A DNA stretch of 64,000 nucleotides, taken from NCBI GenBank assembly GCA_963835565.1, contig CAWIGY010000075.1, positions 88 to 64,087 on the forward strand. Direction: 5' to 3'. The position numbers were made by a program, and so were the translations under genes. The number at the start of each line of letters is the position of its first letter. The stretch's first letter is position 1. Shown here piece after piece: positions 12,921 through 23,250 of the stretch. Under the pieces are notes generated by a model. The model was given only the letters and a program-made list of their open reading frames with translations, made no database searches and was not told the DNA's origin. This stretch comes from an uncultured delta proteobacterium (GTDB lineage: Bacteria > Myxococcota_A > Polyangia > Polyangiales > Polyangiaceae).

Positions 12921-13496
12921 CTAATTCACGATATTAATTACCCCCGCCATGGCTGCGTGGATTGAGCAGTCGTAAAAGAGGGTGCTCGGCGCTGTGGAGT
13001 CAACGACGAAGGTTACATTTCCGGTATCTGAGCCGTTGCCGGTTACGCCGGTATTGTAGGCGTTTGCGGTGCCCGTGCTTTGGACGGTCTTTATGTAGAA
13101 GGGATGCCCGCTGGCATTGACGGCAAAGGTGTACGTGCTACCTCGGCAGAAGGTCAACGTGGGGTTGGCCGTTTCATCAATAAGATAGGCGGTCATGGCT
13201 TGGTTGGTGACATTCAATGTTCCCGCCGCATGGCAGCTGGCAGTTGAGCCACCGGTTCCGGCTGGGCTAGTGCTGCCACCCGTTCCACCCGCGCCGGTCA
13301 CCGCGCCACCGGCGCCCAACGCAAACCCGCCGGCACCCGTCACGGTCGAGGCGCCCCCGGAGGAACTGCCACCGTTGGCGGATATTGTGCCTCCGCCACC
13401 CATCGCGCTGCTTGCTGGATTGCTGCCCGAGCAAGCGCCCATTCCGAATGCGCTAAAAAAAATGGTAAACGGTGCAAGGGGTCGACAGGCGTGCAT
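12921..13496 (-). CDS. cupredoxin-like (type-1 blue copper) lipoprotein
   Basis: Lipobox FGMGACSG followed by a Gly/Ser linker. Candidate copper ligands are His in ASGHPFY plus Cys, His and Met in YDCSIHAAMAG (an amicyanin-type C-x2-H-x2-M loop). Confidence 0.7.
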   Translation of the reverse strand: MHACRPLAPFTIFFSAFGMGACSGSNPASSAMGGGGTISANGGSSSGGASTVTGAGGFALGAGGAVTGAGGTGGSTSPAGTGGSTASCHAAGTLNVTNQAMTAYLIDETANPTLTFCRGSTYTFAVNASGHPFYIKTVQSTGTANAYNTGVTGNGSDTGNVTFVVDSTAPSTLFYDCSIHAAMAGVINIVN

Positions 13497-13712: not shown

Positions 13713-14270
13713 TTAGCCGTTGATACAGTCGCACTCGGGGGTGCCAATCCCCACGTACATGTAGTTAACGTAGCCATTGTTTAAGCAGCAACAAATACAA
13801 GCCGTGTCCGGCGAGGGCTGTGTGAGCGTGCTGCTGCAAATGGATTTGTCGAATTTATTACTACACTGGCAGGACGTGTTACCAACCCAGCCACTGGACA
13901 TATAGCTCGCGTTGGTACAACATGACGAACAGGCGTCCGAGCTTGCGGTCTGAGCCGCGCAGACGGTGACGCCGGCATCGGCATCGTTCATCGGGTTGGA
14001 ACAGGTGCACTGGTCGTTGTTAATGAAGCTGCTCACCGAGTAGCCGCCAGTAGTGCAGCAAGTTCCGCATTGATCGACCTTGGTTTGGTCGGAGCTACCC
14101 GAGATCGAAGCGCACAGAGTGATATTGATATTCGCGGGAGGATGGGCACTACACGCACCCGAGGTTGCCGGATTGTTGCTCGAGCTACTGCAGCCCACTT
14201 GCGCGATAATGCCGAGGAAAGGAATGAAGTACCGTATATTGCGAGTTATCATGATGCGCCTGTACGTCAT
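13713..14270 (-). CDS. Cys-rich lipoprotein with three internal Cys-motif repeats
   Basis: Signal peptide with lipobox (IIAQVGCSS). Contains three repeats of C-x(9-14)-C-x2-CC-x(3-4)-[GS]Y-x(9-11)-C-x-C-[SI]N. The start codon is uncertain (14270, 14252 or 14297). Confidence 0.6.
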   Translation of the reverse strand: MTYRRIMITRNIRYFIPFLGIIAQVGCSSSSNNPATSGACSAHPPANINITLCASISGSSDQTKVDQCGTCCTTGGYSVSSFINNDQCTCSNPMNDADAGVTVCAAQTASSDACSSCCTNASYMSSGWVGNTSCQCSNKFDKSICSSTLTQPSPDTACICCCLNNGYVNYMYVGIGTPECDCING

Positions 14271-14372
14271 TTTTGATCGAAAGCTTCCCCCAAACACTCA
14301 ATCTGCAGCACTGGCCAAATGGCCTGCCGCGGTGTCGCACACGGTTCCCAGTGAGCTGCTACGGTATCCAGC

Positions 14373-14873
14373 GTGCCGGTCCGCTTGATCTTAATGGGGC
14401 TGCTATTGCTAGCCCTGATTGTTTGGACTCTGCCGCCTGTGAGCGTTACGGCGCGTCGGCAAATCTCGCGCTGGGCAATTCGGATTGCCATTGGAGTGGG
14501 CTTATTAATTCTGCTGCGCCTGGGATTGCCGTGGTTGGCAGTCATTGGCACCGCCTTGGTTGCCGTGCTGCGCTTGGCAACGCCGATATTGGTTCGCCTG
14601 TTGCCGTTCTGGTTGGCCCGGCACAATCAGCCGAATGGGCCTGGAATTCCGGGGCAAAATGCGGGACCGGCGGGATTTCGCAGGCCACCCGACATGACCC
14701 GTGCGCATGCACTTGAGGTTCTGGATCTTCACGAAGGGGCTTCTCGCGACGAAATCCTCAATGCGTATCGAGAGCTTATCAAGAAGGTCCACCCCGATCA
14801 CGGAGGGTCATCATACTTAGCCGCAGAAGTCAATCGAGCGAGGGATGTACTGCTGTCGAAAGACACCCAGTGA
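14373..14873 (+). CDS. membrane-anchored J-domain (DnaJ-like) protein
   Basis: N-terminal TM helices. C-terminal J domain with an HPD motif (ILNAYRELIKKVHPDHGG). Confidence 0.8.
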   Translation: MPVRLILMGLLLLALIVWTLPPVSVTARRQISRWAIRIAIGVGLLILLRLGLPWLAVIGTALVAVLRLATPILVRLLPFWLARHNQPNGPGIPGQNAGPAGFRRPPDMTRAHALEVLDLHEGASRDEILNAYRELIKKVHPDHGGSSYLAAEVNRARDVLLSKDTQ

Positions 14874-14961: not shown

Positions 14962-16230
14962 CTAAATATCCGACCGAACTCCCGCATACGGTAATGTATA
15001 ACAACGGGAAAGCAGCGACTCGACGTAGTCTGCTGGCAGAGAAGCGCAATACATCTGAAGACAATTGAGGTAATAGCTGACCTCGTCGCACGTCGTGCAC
15101 GTAAGCAGCGCATTCAGTCCGTCAATCCACGCAGAGTTGAGGGTCCCGACGCAAGCGATCAGCGAACTGTTGTTTGCCCAACCACAATATCCAATCGCCG
15201 ATTTGAGCCCCGTAAAAGAGCAATTCGACGAGCCACCCGTGCCTTGGACTGACTGCCCGCCGGTACCGGGGCGATACTGCCGGTTGTAGGCAAAGCGCTG
15301 GGGATCTTCCCAAATTTGGCGTAGGGTCTCATTGCGCAGATTGCCTTCAACGAATTCTGCTGGCAAAATCATGCACCCCTTGACGTCACCACAACTGGTA
15401 ATGCCCAAATGGCGAATCCCGGCAAAACAACCGAGCCAGCAACGCGACAGCGCCCCATCGGCTGAACGCAGCCGCGGATCGTCGGTGGTCCACCAGCCCA
15501 ATGCGTCCGTGATAATGGGTCGCAGCTTAGTTCTTCGGGCAAGCCGGCGCAATGTCGCGAGGAGTTCCGGCATGTCTTGTTCCTCCAAAATCAGAGGACT
15601 TCCTGCAGCTCGCCCCATCGGAAGCGTCGGTTGCAGCTGCCAACCAATGGCGCCCGCGCCGAGCAGCTCGTCGCCCATGGATTCAAGTTCTGGCAAGGAC
15701 ATGCGGTTGACTTGCGTGGTTACCCCCGCGGAGATGCGCGCCGCCCTCAGTGCTGAAATGGCTTTGATGGCCTGAGCATGGGCACCGACAGAACCCCGCT
15801 GAGCATCGTGGCTAGACCTCAGGCCGTCAACACTCACTGTGACTGAATTCACACCCGCGTCTTTCAGCTGACGCGCGCAGGTGGGGTCTAGACCTGTGCC
15901 TGATGTGATAACTTCGACAAGCATACGGCGAGCACGAGCCTCTTTGATGAGCCGCATGAGATCCGGGCGGCATAAGGGTTCACCGCCTAGAAAACTCACG
16001 CGCTGGCAACCGAGGTCCTTAAGCTCAGACAGCACGCGAAACAATTCGTCGGTGGTCAGCTCGTTGTCGGCGGCACGCCCGCAATTTGAGCCACAAGTGA
16101 CGCAACGACAAGGACAAGCCGTCGTAAGCTCGAATTCCGCTGCATCGAGATGTGGCTTGAGAAGTAGCGGCAACAATGCCTTAGAGTCGGGCTTTGCTTG
16201 CTTCGATTCATCGTTACCAGCGAATGTCAT
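14962..16230 (-). CDS. radical SAM enzyme with atypical SPASM-like C-terminal region
   Basis: CxxxCxxC motif in CPCRCVTC. The GGEP motif and CFAGIRHLGITSCGDVKGC match a first SPASM half. The distal cluster reads CTTCDEVSYYLNCLQMYC after a Gly-rich insert. The ATG overlaps the stop of the upstream radical-SAM gene (ATGA at 16227-16230). Confidence 0.85.
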   Translation of the reverse strand: MTFAGNDESKQAKPDSKALLPLLLKPHLDAAEFELTTACPCRCVTCGSNCGRAADNELTTDELFRVLSELKDLGCQRVSFLGGEPLCRPDLMRLIKEARARRMLVEVITSGTGLDPTCARQLKDAGVNSVTVSVDGLRSSHDAQRGSVGAHAQAIKAISALRAARISAGVTTQVNRMSLPELESMGDELLGAGAIGWQLQPTLPMGRAAGSPLILEEQDMPELLATLRRLARRTKLRPIITDALGWWTTDDPRLRSADGALSRCWLGCFAGIRHLGITSCGDVKGCMILPAEFVEGNLRNETLRQIWEDPQRFAYNRQYRPGTGGQSVQGTGGSSNCSFTGLKSAIGYCGWANNSSLIACVGTLNSAWIDGLNALLTCTTCDEVSYYLNCLQMYCASLPADYVESLLSRCYTLPYAGVRSDI

Positions 16231-17351
16231 GGAGAGTCGCTTCCTTCGTGAGCCGCGCCTTCTAACAGGCGCAAGCAATGCCGGTTTTCATAGATCGTCC
16301 CGGTCGTATAATAGGACATAATCGGGCAACCCGCGCGGCACAATGTTCCTAAGAGGCACCGCGCGCATCCCCCTGTCAAGCGGGTAGGATCGAATTGTGT
16401 GACGTAAGAGAAGCGCTTTTCGTCATTCCAAATATCGGCCAATGATTCATGGTGGAGCGATCCCGCGTCGAACTCAGCGGGCAGCCCCGAACAGCCACGT
16501 ACTTTGCCCGCGCAACTAATCGACAATAGTCGAACCCCGGCGTTGCACCCAAACCACATCATTGGAACGGTGCGATTGCGAATCTCAAGCTCCTGCCTCG
16601 AACAGTAACCGATGGTGTCTGTAACTTCGATTGGGGGAAATCGAGTGTGAGCGCGCCCTTGCACAATCAGGTCGGCTAGGGCCGGCAGTTGCTCAGGTGC
16701 GAGTACGTAGGGCCGACCGAGCGCTTGCACATGGGCATTGGGTATGGCCAACTGCAATTGCCAATGCTCAACACCGAGCGACCCCAATAACTCGCCGAGC
16801 GATTCGAGCTCAAGCCAATTATCCTGATTGATTTGCGTAATAATGCCAACTGGTAGATGCGGCAGCGCGCGCCGGATGCCATCGAGAGTCGAATCAAAAG
16901 CTGAAGTAGGATGCCCCGTGGGGGCAATTCGGGTTCGATTGTGGGTGTCGCGCAGCCCGTCAACTGAGACGCTCAGGCCATTGACGCCTGCGCGCAGAAG
17001 GCGTCCAATCATCGCATCATCGAGCCAGGTGCCATTGGTAATCAGCTGCACGCACAACCCCAGCTGCTTCAGGTACTTGCAGAGACCTTCCCAATGTGGA
17101 GACAACAAGGGCTCGCCGCCCGTCAGGTTAACCCGTCTACAGCCCAAGTCGCAGAGCTCATCGGCGACCTGCGTCATCTGCTGGAGCGAGAGTTCATTGG
17201 CGTGAGGAAACTTAGCATGCGTTTCGCAGTGGATGCATTCCAAGTTACACTGGTTCGTGATGGACCAAATGCATCGCTCTGGAATACGACGGATTGCACC
17301 TAACGGATGTCGCCACTGGTGGCCTTCATGTTCGTTCGATGCTGTCAACAT
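16227..17351 (-). CDS. radical SAM/SPASM-domain enzyme
   Basis: CNLECIHC (CxxxCxxC) and GGEPLL. SPASM region is canonical (GCNAGVRLLSISCAGKVRGC ... GGCARCLLGTLCRAGC). An AAGGA Shine-Dalgarno sequence lies 9 nt upstream of the ATG at 17351. Confidence 0.85.
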   Translation of the reverse strand: MLTASNEHEGHQWRHPLGAIRRIPERCIWSITNQCNLECIHCETHAKFPHANELSLQQMTQVADELCDLGCRRVNLTGGEPLLSPHWEGLCKYLKQLGLCVQLITNGTWLDDAMIGRLLRAGVNGLSVSVDGLRDTHNRTRIAPTGHPTSAFDSTLDGIRRALPHLPVGIITQINQDNWLELESLGELLGSLGVEHWQLQLAIPNAHVQALGRPYVLAPEQLPALADLIVQGRAHTRFPPIEVTDTIGYCSRQELEIRNRTVPMMWFGCNAGVRLLSISCAGKVRGCSGLPAEFDAGSLHHESLADIWNDEKRFSYVTQFDPTRLTGGCARCLLGTLCRAGCPIMSYYTTGTIYENRHCLRLLEGAAHEGSDSP

Positions 17352-17368
17352 AATTCCGCATCCTTGAA

Positions 17369-18115
17369 TCAAACAAGCCAGCGAGCGAGCGCAGTCGATA
17401 CGGCCAGCAGAACCTCTGGTGGAATTGCGTGTGATCCCGCAAAGGCCATCCAAGTGACGTCCCAACCGGACTCAACCAGTTGGGCCTGCAATTTCTCGGC
17501 GACAACATAAGGCAAGATTGGATCCAACTGTCCGTGGCTGAGCAAGGCGCGCATGCCAGCGCGCCGCCGCGCATTCTCTTGAAATCCATGGGTAACAACC
17601 ATGGCCCCACTCATATAAATAAGCCCAGCCAATGGGCGGTTATCGTGCAACACGGCGTCCAGGCACGCGATAGCACCCTGAGAGAAACCTCCGAGCACGA
17701 TTCGATCCGAAGCCAGATTGAACTTAGCTTGTATCGCGTCAAGCAGGGCAATCACGACTGGACGCGCGGCATAAACGCCATCGGTAGCGCAGCGCGTGGC
17801 CAATTGAACCTGCCCGGTTAACCTGGCTAAATGAAGATTACTATCTTTAGTTTCCCACCAGCCGCGAGCTCCAGCAAAGCCCGACCCCCTGGAATCGCCC
17901 AAGTCCAAGGGCCCTTCAGGAATCACGAACCAAGTACCCTCCGGCGCGTTAAGCTCGTTTGCAATCGATATTAAGTCGGTGCCAGCGACTCCGAAACCGT
18001 GGAGGAGCACCACCGCGGCGGTAGGCATTTGCCCAGGCGTCGCGGGACAAGATTTGATATGGACGTTACTGGGGAATCGCAACTGACAGTGGCTGCACTT
18101 CCTAATAGCAGCCAC
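17369..18115 (-). CDS. alpha/beta-hydrolase (phospholipase/carboxylesterase family)
   Basis: Motifs VVLLHGFG, the nucleophile elbow GGFSQGA, SHGQLDPILPY and GSHAIP. The start is uncertain. The 5' end overlaps the upstream ORF by 145 nt. Confidence 0.75.
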   Translation of the reverse strand: MAAIRKCSHCQLRFPSNVHIKSCPATPGQMPTAAVVLLHGFGVAGTDLISIANELNAPEGTWFVIPEGPLDLGDSRGSGFAGARGWWETKDSNLHLARLTGQVQLATRCATDGVYAARPVVIALLDAIQAKFNLASDRIVLGGFSQGAIACLDAVLHDNRPLAGLIYMSGAMVVTHGFQENARRRAGMRALLSHGQLDPILPYVVAEKLQAQLVESGWDVTWMAFAGSHAIPPEVLLAVSTALARWLV

Positions 18116-18516
18116 ACCGAAAGGCTCGGGCGTGATAGCCGCCGGGCTAGCGCGAGAAAGCTTCCCGGCGAAGATTCGGCTGCCGAAAGCCGCTCGCGAA
18201 TTTCGTCGAGCAGCGCACTGTGTGCTGCGTTCGACAAAACCTCGTTGTTTTGTGCGTCACCTTCAAGTCGCTCGCGCAGATCGCTTTGCAGCGCCTCCAA
18301 TAGTTCACGCATCGATTGCCAGAACTGGACGTCGGCGTGCCGTGAAACCAACAAATAATAGAATTGGTCCAACACCTCCCCAGCGGGTGCCCAGGGCACA
18401 ATTGGCATTCCTTGTTCAAAGAGAAAGCGACGAACTCGCAACAATGACGGCGGAACGAAGCTTAGCGGAGCGCTCAACTGCGGTGAGTCGTCGGACGTTC
18501 GATGCGGTGAGTCCAT
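17971..18516 (-). CDS. hypothetical protein, first gene of the radical-SAM operon
   Basis: ORF with a GGAGA Shine-Dalgarno sequence upstream of the ATG at 18516. The body is helical and acidic (QSDLRERLEGDAQNNEV...). The C-terminal ~50 aa look out of frame, so the 3' end is unreliable. Confidence 0.35.
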   Translation of the reverse strand: MDSPHRTSDDSPQLSAPLSFVPPSLLRVRRFLFEQGMPIVPWAPAGEVLDQFYYLLVSRHADVQFWQSMRELLEALQSDLRERLEGDAQNNEVLSNAAHSALLDEIRERLSAAESSPGSFLALARRLSRPSLSVWLLLGSAATVSCDSPVTSISNLVPRRLGKCLPPRWCSSTVSESLAPT

Positions 18517-18693
18517 TTGGATGTCTCCAAGCCAAAGGTACGGTGTAAGTGCAGCCAACCCGCATTTTTCACGCAAAGCGCGCGGCGCGCAAGGCTCAAC
18601 GGCACGGAAAACGCAAACGGTGGATTTTACTGCGTTGTGAAGGACTTGTTAGCGCGCTATGAACCCATTGCGAAACGGATGTTGGCTCAGACT

Positions 18694-19469
18694 ATGAAGT
18701 TTTCGAAGCGCACAGGGGTGCAGGTTGCGCTTCTGACGTCGGCAACCCTGCTGCTCGGCGCGCAATCGACGTCGGACTCAGCCGCCGATCCCACCATCGC
18801 TAATGATCCAAATGCGACGTCGCGCTGCCCCGCCGACATGCAACTCATTGCGAATGCGTTTTGTATCGACCGCTTCGAAGCGAGCACCGCCGAATTGACC
18901 CCCGACGGCAAAGTTATTGCGCATTCGCCATTCTTGCCGGTAACCGGCCTGCGCGTGAAAGCGCTGTCGCAAAAAGACGTCATTCCTCAGGCGTATATCA
19001 GCCGCAATCAGGCGCTGGCTGCTTGTGTAGAATCGCATAAGCGGCTCTGCACCGAACGCGAGTGGGTAGTCGCCTGCAAGGGCCCCGAGCGAACGACGTT
19101 CCCCTACGGCAATACGCACAAGCCGGGGTATTGCGTTGACACCAACCGCGTAAACCCGCTGATTAGCTATTTGAGGCGCTCGGCTCGGCACGTTACCAAT
19201 TTTCCACCATGAACGACCCAGGGCTCAACCAAGTTCCAGGCACGCTTGCCCCGACTGGTTCCTTTTCCCTCTGCACCAATGGGTATCACGTATACGATAT
19301 GGTAGGCAATGTCCACGAGTGGACTTCCGATCCGCAGGGCACGTTTCGCGGTGGCTTTTATCTGGATACCAAGCTCAATGGTTCCGGTTGCGACTACCGA
19401 ACCGTGTCACATCCAGCAACCTACCACGACTATTCAACCGGCTTTCGCTGCTGTACAGATGCCCGATAG
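18694..19469 (+). pseudogene. FGE/SUMF1-domain (formylglycine-generating-enzyme-like) secreted protein, one frameshift
   Basis: Signal peptide MKFSKRTGVQVALLTSATLLLGA. FGE hallmarks YDMVGNVHEWT and TGFRCC are present. The frame switches between about 19166 and 19210. Confidence 0.8.
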
Positions 19470-22473: not shown

Positions 22474-23250
22474 GTGTTTGCAGGCTATCTTCTTTTGTTT
22501 GGTTTGAATCGCAACGCTAGGCGTACTGCTGCAATCAAATTACTTGTCCAAGGTTTAGCACTCGCGTCGAACGGGGGCTGTTGGCTAGCTTTGGATGGCT
22601 GCAGCGCACTTGGTGGAGCAACCCAATGCTCGGTAGGTACGAGTCAATGTACAATAACCGGACGGCAGACGTGTCAAGATACCGGCACTAGTGGTATTTG
22701 GGTAGACGCGCCATGCCCTTCCGGCCAAACTTATTGTGTCACTACCAATGTTTATTCCGCCGAATGCGCGTCAACTCCCCACTGCGCTTCTACCGCTACC
22801 GCCTGCGGCTCCTCTGGACTTTGCGCTGACGGTCCAAACGGGTGCGTTGCAACCGAAGCGGGCTGCGCCAATTCGACCAGTTGCCCAGTATTCGGCACCT
22901 GTGGTTTCGACGGCGAGAATTGTGTCACGACTGCAGCTGGCTGTTTAGCCTCGCAAGACTGCGTGTCAAACGGACTATGCGGTTTTAGTGCTGGTAGTTG
23001 CGCGAGTACAGACGCGGGATGTGTAAACTCTACGGGTTGCAAGACTAATGGCCTGTGCGCGGTCTCGCCAATAAATGGCTGTGAAGCTACTGTGGAAGGT
23101 TGTGCGGCATCTGACGGATGCATTAATTTCGGGTTCTGCGGTGTCTCTGATTCAAGCTGCGTTGCAACTGCCGAGGGCTGCAAGAATTCTACTCGCTGCC
23201 AACAGGCCGGCGTATGTACATTGGCAGGTTCGGTTTGTGAAGCAAGTTAG
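22474..23250 (+). CDS. secreted Cys-rich repeat protein
   Basis: AAGGAGG lies 5 nt upstream of the GTG start. Contains about six ~26-aa repeats of GC-x-NS-x-C-x3-G-x-CG-x5-C. Confidence 0.6.
   Translation: MFAGYLLLFGLNRNARRTAAIKLLVQGLALASNGGCWLALDGCSALGGATQCSVGTSQCTITGRQTCQDTGTSGIWVDAPCPSGQTYCVTTNVYSAECASTPHCASTATACGSSGLCADGPNGCVATEAGCANSTSCPVFGTCGFDGENCVTTAAGCLASQDCVSNGLCGFSAGSCASTDAGCVNSTGCKTNGLCAVSPINGCEATVEGCAASDGCINFGFCGVSDSSCVATAEGCKNSTRCQQAGVCTLAGSVCEAS

Follow-up and report, generated by a model that had tools for sequence, protein, structure and literature searches.

A four-gene operon in an uncultured delta proteobacterium (Polyangiaceae) raises the question of what two adjacent radical S-adenosylmethionine (rSAM) enzymes modify when no precursor peptide accompanies them. 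The operon occupies positions 14962-18516 of a 64,000-nt stretch of contig CAWIGY010000075.1 (positions 88 to 64,087 of the forward strand; assembly GCA_963835565.1), which is called the window below and to which all coordinates refer unless another locus is named. Its four genes, ORF A, a hydrolase gene, rSAM1 and rSAM2, all lie on the minus strand, as described in an original prediction made from the sequence alone, and the further claim that no short ORF with a leader/core appearance lies nearby holds for the operon flanks. Comparison with related loci favors, with some reserve, the reading that a cassette conserved in Myxococcota/Polyangia, and not described until now, is present here in a copy rearranged by deletion, that a partner protein encoded in each such cassette is the substrate, and that the copy in the window is crippled.

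Both radical SAM enzymes are of the SPASM type, as had been proposed. rSAM1 (16227-17351; 374 aa, intact) matches the Pfam domain Radical_SAM (PF04055) with an E-value of 7e-23 (82 bits against a threshold of 29.5) and carries the motif CNLECIHC, and rSAM2 (14962-16230 for the whole ORF; 422 aa) matches it at 8e-21 (75 bits) with CPCRCVTC. The CxxxCxxC motif assigned earlier to both enzymes is therefore present in each. Both had also been credited with the first SPASM half-motif. The match of rSAM2 to PF13186 goes no further and covers only profile positions 1-48 of 67 (C-x12-C-GDVKGC), whereas the SPASM domain of rSAM1 is complete (positions 1-66 of 67; C-x10-C-AGKVRGC, CARCLLGTLCRAGC, and a terminal HC). 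The pattern that defines SPASM membership in PF13186/TIGR04085, C-x9-15-G-x4-C … CxxCx5Cx3C … C, is found in rSAM1 and not in the rSAM2 of the window.

In a hidden Markov model scan, no rSAM of this cassette or its relatives reached any curated NCBIfam cut-off, which agrees with the earlier remark that no characterized pathway could be recognized. The best-scoring curated models for every cassette rSAM are those of two peptide maturase families, TIGR04103 and TIGR03913, which align with the rSAM and SPASM domains over their full length. The window proteins score 148-194 bits and the intact relatives at most 253 bits, against cut-offs of 725 and 591.75, and the top match of rSAM1 is TIGR03913 at 158 bits (cut-off 592). 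The NCBIfam models for PqqE, MftC, and the sactisynthases score below these two, the models for AhbC, AhbD, and NirJ yield 85-127 bits against cut-offs of 500-650, and no model for anSME is among the 25 best NCBIfam matches. Since both enzymes and their intact relatives score far under the curated cut-offs, no known pathway is assigned, and the cassette rSAMs are SPASM maturases of an uncurated clade. The nearest solved structures in a sequence search of the PDB are SkfB, BlsE, PqqE, and CteB (E-values of 1e-7 to 1e-15), and a first genome scan with rSAM2 returned only enzymes of other families with 28-31% identity (L001-L005). No PqqD-like or RRE domain was found in the cassette enzymes by Pfam and NCBIfam scans, nor by Pfam in any cassette protein. 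The rSAM core of the cassette enzymes begins at about residue 30, which, together with the missing RRE, is what would be expected of protein-modifying SPASM enzymes.

A candidate substrate emerges from the genes that accompany these enzymes. The protein encoded downstream of rSAM2 in the related locus L006, ORF A of the window, and the proteins encoded 5′ of the hydrolase in L009 and L010 are homologous and are referred to here as partners. A partner gene stands beside an rSAM2-type gene in all of the at least 11 related cassettes examined, which come from uncultured Myxococcota/Polyangia (L006-8, L009, L010/11, L012/13, JGI 3300075153, L014, L015, L016, L021, and L022), and the flanking genes vary everywhere. 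Every further JGI locus with enough flanking sequence (L026, L028, L033, L036, L038, and L039) also has a partner beside the hydrolase, the rSAM, or both. The original prediction was to be given up if the enzymes fell into a known pathway or if gene order proved unconserved in relatives; because synteny is strongly conserved and no known pathway is assigned, it stands on both counts. Its suggestion that the 181-aa ORF A is a substrate holds insofar as the family accompanies these enzymes everywhere, although ORF A itself is only the front half of a partner of ~290 aa.

The cassettes differ in composition around this constant pair. L006/7/8 and L022 have the order A1, hydrolase, rSAM1, rSAM2, A2, with two partner copies (A1 and A2), and a shorter form with partner, hydrolase, and a single rSAM occurs in L009/L020, L010/11, L021, L026, and L028. 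In L012/13 and JGI 3300075153, a gene for a hydrolase::rSAM fusion of 601-602 aa is flanked by a partner gene on either side. The Polyangiaceae metagenome-assembled genomes (MAGs; L014-16) have rSAM1 followed by rSAM2, with the partner before or after them and the hydrolase missing. The second rSAM is optional, as is the Ser-Asp-His Abhydrolase_2 enzyme, which is confined to one clade and sometimes fused to the rSAM, and there are one or two partner copies. The rSAM2 type is always present, and the rSAM1 type is an accessory paralogue confined to some cassettes; the rSAM1 of the window is 69% identical to its L006 orthologue and 45-50% identical to those of the Polyangiaceae MAGs. A further cassette, L021 with its single rSAM, lies in the same MAG as L022. 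A profile scan of the genome collection with an alignment of close partners found only three loci.

Full-length partners (280-343 aa) share one architecture. A helical N-domain of ~125 aa (FVPPSLLRVRxFLFEHGMPIVPWA…FWQ…) is followed by an internal signal, a K/R-flanked hydrophobic stretch ending in the canonical lipobox …LLLLAGAATVS-C-GAR. Next come a linker rich in Gly and Ser, for which disorder is predicted, a C-domain of four helices in which 6-8 Cys are conserved, and a disordered extreme C-terminus, C-x3-4-Y-x-G-V-R-[MLF]-x. When 35 diverse partners were aligned, the lipobox Cys and the Tyr, Gly, and Val of the tail were among only nine invariant columns. The internal lipobox, scored as [LVI][ASTVI][GAS]C after a K/R-flanked hydrophobic region, is present in 120 of the 152 full-length representatives (median Cys position 135), and the uncharged run before it has a median length of 18 residues and is preceded by about two K/R. 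Unlike the signal of lipoprotein precursors, that of the partners is not N-terminal, since the conserved ~125-aa domain precedes it in frame. A profile search of 1.84 billion representatives gave 233 partner clusters at 50% identity (E ≤ 1e-3), 140 of them at E ≤ 1e-10, mostly as full-length matches. Six partner proteins compared with Pfam and NCBIfam gave nothing over threshold. In AlphaFold2 (AF2) predictions the N-domain is helical with good confidence, the C-domain is also helical, and the tail is disordered.

Three types of partner tail were distinguished, …Y-x-G-V-R-Phi-x and, in more distant members, YKGVSFP and the acidic …DDDxH. Each type examined sits beside an rSAM/SPASM gene: a partner gene of the YKGVSFP type is followed by a gene for a 438-aa rSAM/SPASM protein, and on one of two short contigs with a partner of the DDDxH type, the partner gene converges on sequence for an rSAM1-like SPASM C-terminus. 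Residues ~110-166 of the L015 and L012 partners gave sub-threshold matches (13-17 against 37 bits) to NF058595, the 'lipo-invert' C-terminal anchoring domain. These matches span the internal signal and linker, and the name hints at a related concept, on which no literature was found.

Measured against its family, the rSAM2 of the window is a chimera, in which an enzyme without the second SPASM half has been joined to the C-domain of a partner by one deletion. The original prediction had missed both the lost half and the back half of a second partner copy now fused to the enzyme. The window protein is ~50-80 residues longer than all its homologues, which have 343-373 aa, span only ~76% of it, and continue with CxxCx5Cx3C. 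The cysteines of this motif ligate auxiliary clusters in characterized SPASM enzymes. The window protein is collinear with homologues of 365-373 aa (58-82% identity) through …RFAYNRQYR and divergent afterwards, where the homologues read …SLSGPCANCKNAELCRGGC…, with CxxCx5Cx3C, and the window reads PGTGGQSVQGTGGSSNCSF…LPYAGVRSDI. At this end of the window gene, CxxCx5Cx3C is encoded in none of the three reading frames. It is present in all 116 nearest homologues (P0002-P0116 and P0120), and P0117-P0119, which also lack it, are remote (27-28% identity). Among the 120 best homologues, a partner-type tail is seen in the rSAM2 of the window alone, and at more than 30% identity no other protein lacks the motif.

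The two parts of the chimera can be assigned to their sources. The core (15268-16230; aa 1 to ~321 of 422) retains the rSAM domain and the first SPASM half. The tail (14962-15267), the last ~100 codons of the ORF, is 60% identical (E-value 2e-35) to aa 189-277 of the 280-aa L006 partner, which is encoded just downstream of rSAM2 there, and 38% identical to the L009 partner. It contains, in frame, a portion of the Gly-rich linker of partner A2, then its helical C-domain with 8 Cys, and its …LPYAGVRSDI end with the stop codon. The closest relative with an intact copy is L036, which comes from a JGI metagenome. Its rSAM2 is 87% identical to that of the window in protein and 82.8% in DNA, and the convergent DnaJ-domain gene found downstream in the window is shared. 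Positions 15745-15270 of the window align with L036 7-482 at 82.8%, and positions 15267-14961 align with L036 1195-1498 at 73%. Because these two collinear blocks are separated in L036 only, ~712 nt are missing from the window, and with them the final ~43 codons of rSAM2 and the initial ~180 of A2. Both breakpoints in L036 bear a 4-nt microhomology, TCGC, and the junction in the window (15262-15275, minus strand) reads …CAGTATCGCC, then CCGG, then TACCGGCGG….

The deletion is real, as the identical 422-aa product is encoded in three further assemblies (L017-L019), one of which, L018, represents a slightly different strain with 98.6-99.5% DNA identity to the window; with the window, four assemblies contain the chimera. 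A frameshift was considered as the cause of the odd C-terminus and rejected, since no frame encodes the second SPASM half and the same protein occurs in the three other assemblies. The latter point also excludes an assembly artefact, though the window has at least one single-base indel elsewhere. Relative to L006, dN/dS is 0.13-0.24 over all five segments compared and 0.17 in the chimeric tail. With dS saturated at 1.0-1.7, these ratios cannot date the deletion; they would indicate that no segment has been in neutral drift for long, and nothing further.

The second damaged gene is ORF A (17971-18516; 181 aa, ATG at 18516), which is 56% identical (E-value 1e-48) to aa 16-146 of the 280-aa L006 partner and is a partner truncated just past its lipobox Cys. 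Its helical N-domain (aa ~20-125) is still there, as is the internal signal of the lipoprotein type, …RRLSRPSLSVWLLLGSAATVS-C146 (Cys codon 18081-18079), but linker, Cys-rich domain, and Y-x-G-V tail are gone. After C146 it reads out of frame into the hydrolase gene; relative to L006, ~66 nt are absent at this point, which in L006 hold a short tail, the stop, and a spacer. Since ORF A continues out of frame beyond where its relatives stop, the two ORFs overlap by up to 145 nt. The AF2 model of ORF A has pLDDT values of 86-93 at residues 20-80 and below 50 past residue 152, and the protein has no Pfam or NCBIfam match. The stretch SISNLVPRR after its Cys was considered as a counterpart of the tail SIYNGVRMV and rejected, as it is hydrolase coding region in another frame.

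The window copy as a whole consists of a headless partner C-domain joined to an rSAM2 with half a SPASM domain, a tailless partner N-domain, and an intact rSAM1 and hydrolase. Because rSAM2 is without the four auxiliary-cluster Cys and the partner copies are cut off from either signal or tail, the ancestral function has, on balance, more probably been lost in this genome than kept. Deletions seem to be common in these genes. The A1 partner of L006 and L007 has a clean in-frame deletion of 375 nt relative to the otherwise 99.6%-identical L008, keeping the N-domain, the signal, and CDCSSIYNGVRMV. Between L008 3497-4354 and L006 7649-8128 the partner shrinks from 285 to 159 aa, with the linker and Cys-rich domain lost and the CDCSSIYNGVRMV tail kept. 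Identity between the two loci falls from 99.6% downstream of this breakpoint to ~95% upstream, which suggests recombination there. In L022 (3904-4783; Myxococcales bacterium fen_1139), the alignment of the rSAM2 orthologue falls into two pieces, ~24 residues are absent, and the frame shifts at ~4638/4640; this is either another damaged rSAM2 or an assembly error.

The hydrolase (17369-18115; GTG start at 18115, alternative ATG at 18028) belongs to the Pfam family Abhydrolase_2 (PF02230; phospholipase/carboxylesterase), with an E-value of 5e-24 and 85.8 bits against a threshold of 23. Its nearest solved structures are the carboxylesterases 4fhz and 1auo and the acyl-protein thioesterases 1 and 2, and the triad Ser145 (GGFSQGA), Asp198, and His229 is invariant among cassette homologues. 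It is a cytoplasmic α/β-hydrolase and is intact in the window. The existence of hydrolase-rSAM fusion proteins (P0007, P0010, and P0012; 601-602 aa) ties the esterase to the rSAM. The coupling of the downstream genes is as tight as had been noted, with rSAM1 and rSAM2 overlapping by ATGA at 16230-16227, as read directly from the sequence. The ATG of rSAM1 lies 17 nt past the hydrolase stop rather than the 15 nt given earlier, and it does have a Shine-Dalgarno-like sequence of its own, AAGGA, ~10 nt upstream. Promoter and terminator scans of the locus gave signals at chance level.

What the cassette makes can be sketched from this anatomy. The partner is probably the substrate of the cassette rSAMs, so that a protein rather than a short peptide would be modified. 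Its N-domain may serve as a large leader or docking domain that holds the protein in the cytoplasm, a role suggested by the lack of an RRE in the enzymes. The rSAM enzyme or enzymes would then install a crosslink in the Cys/Tyr/Val-containing tail, at the conserved Cys before the tail, or in the C-domain. Options for this bond include a thioether of the kind formed in sacti-, ranthi-, and Qhp-type systems and a C-C bond centered on Tyr or Val, as with MftC. The hydrolase may contribute an accessory ester, thioester, or trimming step. The internal signal would next drive export, and Lgt and signal peptidase II would act at the invariant Cys, with a cut before it that removes the N-domain and leaves a modified lipoprotein. 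Taken further, the cassettes could represent an unrecognized class of rSAM-matured lipoproteins, in which a folded cytoplasmic pro-domain in front of the internal signal retains the protein for crosslinking at the invariant C-x3-4-Y-x-G-V, signal peptidase II is the 'leader peptidase', and the window chimera is a natural enzyme-substrate fusion; this extended proposal is less likely than not.

Several observations weigh against the partner as substrate and the window copy as crippled. It is unusual for a lipoprotein signal to be preceded by an N-terminal extension of ~125 aa, and the hydrophobic segment may instead be a signal-anchor. If export were co-translational, little time would be left for cytoplasmic modification of a C-terminal tail. 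The AF2 models of the partners were built on shallow alignments of 16-19 sequences, and Foldseek searches of the PDB with the full-length partner and N-domain models returned only generic helical bundles (E ≥ 0.38). The hydrolase is absent from the Polyangiaceae clade of cassettes and is therefore not essential to the core chemistry. No description of the system was found in a literature search. The chimera, moreover, is in frame with all 8 Cys and the YAGVR tail kept, and the dN/dS of its tail is low, so that a retained or new function may exist.

This last point can be developed into an account in which the chimera is a new gene that functions as a fusion of enzyme and substrate. The covalent tether would replace the N-domain leader, the truncated rSAM2 would modify the tail in cis or the intact rSAM1 would do so in trans, and ORF A would survive as a separate membrane-anchored N-domain. 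The identical product in at least two slightly different strains and the open reading frames of rSAM1, the hydrolase, and ORF A agree with this account, as does the intact tail. It is nevertheless unlikely, given that the fusion is unique among the 120 best homologues and that the lost Cys belong to a motif that binds auxiliary clusters in characterized SPASM enzymes. Having lost its signal peptide, the tail also cannot get to the compartment that its Cys-rich domain seems made for, the low dN/dS stems mostly from the time before the deletion, and the loss of the ORF A tail as well suggests general decay of the locus. Another account, in which the partner is anchored in the membrane (N-in, C-out, anti-sigma-like) as a scaffold, sensor, or regulator and the enzymes act on a small molecule or lipid, is more doubtful still. 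A signal-anchor and an N-domain that is a generic helical bundle would suit it, the weak PDB matches include the lipid-modifying rSAM GDGT-MAS (E-value 2e-8), and the esterase family acts on lipids and acyl groups. However, an invariant lipobox Cys and a C-terminal Y-x-G-V are hard to explain for a mere scaffold, the tail classes vary by subfamily with each beside its own rSAM, and the nearest curated rSAM families are peptide maturases. Of the cassettes with gene tables, moreover, only those of L009 and L016 have a sigma-factor gene nearby.

Other readings, in part suggested by the neighbors of the operon, now seem scarcely credible: that the triple-repeat Cys-rich lipoprotein encoded nearby on the same strand is the substrate, that the enzymes are anSME-like and act with the divergent formylglycine-generating enzyme (FGE)-like gene or a sulfatase, or that they are heme enzymes of the AhbC/AhbD/NirJ type. 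The original prediction had named the lipoprotein as a candidate substrate and pointed out the FGE-like gene, but synteny contradicts a role for either, as the two genes occur only in contigs of the same genome and are missing from L036 and every other relative; an opposite-strand DnaJ-domain gene also separates the lipoprotein gene from the operon. A sulfatase gene was found in no cassette. The AhbD and NirJ models do match with E-values of 1e-25 to 1e-37, but at 113-127 bits against cut-offs of 500-515, and no heme-biosynthesis genes are listed beside any cassette.

With the partner taken as the substrate, the nearest worked-out analogy is the QhpD/QhpC/QhpE system. QhpD crosslinks the leader-bearing QhpC in the cytoplasm, the leader being needed for rSAM binding, and a serine protease removes the leader before export follows (PMC7876137). 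Both systems would then comprise an RRE-free SPASM rSAM that acts in the cytoplasm on a Cys-containing, periplasm-bound protein with an N-terminal leader, a serine-hydrolase-type enzyme, and an operon that encodes enzyme and putative substrate together. In contrast to the QhpD system, the cassette has no QhpA/QhpB dehydrogenase subunits, ABC exporter, or subtilisin, its 'leader' is folded, comprises ~125 aa, and precedes an internal lipoprotein signal, and its hydrolase is an Abhydrolase_2 esterase; no QhpD model is among the 25 best NCBIfam matches of the cassette rSAMs. TIGR04103 (nif11-class peptide radical SAM maturase 3) and TIGR03913 (GDL-motif peptide-associated radical SAM/SPASM maturase) likewise pair an enzyme with a ribosomal precursor that has a long leader, whereas the partner here is a lipoprotein-like protein of ~290 aa and not a Nif11-leader or GDL-motif peptide. 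SkfB (6efn) and CteB (5wgg), of the sactisynthase/ranthipeptide type, and PqqE (6c8v) have the same rSAM and SPASM architecture and Cys-rich substrates, but their similarity to the cassette enzymes is remote, the cassette enzymes have no N-terminal RRE, and the candidate substrate has its own fold and export signal.

Two further families offer partial parallels. TIGR04133 and TIGR04134 are a 'radical SAM with lipoprotein' pairing of an uncharacterized SPASM rSAM with a predicted lipoprotein. TIGR04133, the one of the two that was scored, is among the top matches of the cassette rSAMs at 119-151 bits, below its cut-off of 425; the cassette differs in that the partner lipobox is internal and the partners have no NCBIfam match. 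The hydrolase shares its fold family, GxSxG nucleophile, and Ser-Asp-His triad with the acyl-protein thioesterase/carboxylesterase family (PF02230; 1auo, 4fhz, and APT1, 1fj2), from which it differs in that it serves an rSAM cassette exclusively and, in some genomes, forms a fusion with an rSAM.

New crosslink chemistry in peptides and proteins comes to a large extent from SPASM rSAM enzymes, and the pairing of an enzyme with a precursor is where most discoveries begin. The present comparison identifies the missing partner for a sizeable orphan clade, with more than 100 rSAM homologues and 233 partner clusters, mostly from uncultured Myxococcota/Polyangia. The partner architecture, a large N-domain with an internal lipobox and an invariant C-terminal Y-x-G-V, lies outside the coverage of Pfam and NCBIfam. 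If the partner is the substrate, the cassette would be a protein-scale pathway resembling those for peptides that are made ribosomally and modified after translation (RiPPs), which couples cytoplasmic radical chemistry to lipoprotein export. Natural variants are at hand in the form of three tail classes, cassettes with and without the hydrolase, cassettes whose rSAMs number one or two, and deletions that keep the frame. Annotators should note that the 422-aa 'radical SAM protein' of this genome, being a deletion chimera, is unfit as a family representative.

The remaining genes around the operon can be described briefly. Between the operon and the Cys-rich lipoprotein gene lies the convergent DnaJ-domain gene (14373-14873, plus strand), which encodes a membrane protein with a C-terminal J domain and occurs in the same place in L036 (77% identity) and not in other cassettes. 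The predicted Cys-rich lipoprotein (13713-14297, minus strand; 194 aa) contains three repeats of …C-x-x-CC-T-x-G/A-x-Y…C-x-C-S/N and has no Pfam or NCBIfam match. Beyond it, a cupredoxin-like lipoprotein of 191 aa (12921-13496, minus strand) has a Gly-rich linker and a C-domain that resembles a type-1 copper site (…FYDCSIHAAMAG…); it gave no Pfam or NCBIfam match at E ≤ 0.01, and its gene was found only in contigs of the window's own genome. These two lipoprotein genes and the FGE-like gene are not part of the system. The FGE-sulfatase-like gene (18517-19469, plus strand), divergent from the operon, is split into ORFs of 231 and 86 aa by a 1-nt deletion at ~19164. On the 99.75%-identical contig L017, which differs from the window by three gap openings in 5.6 kb, the FGE-like protein is intact (277 aa), and the break in the window is due either to an indel from sequencing or assembly or to a frameshift specific to the strain. 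Elsewhere in the window, an ORF at 22474-23250 (plus strand), known from the ORF list only, encodes 258 aa with many short Cys-rich repeats of the form …GC-x-x-S-x-x-C-x-x-x-G-x-CG….

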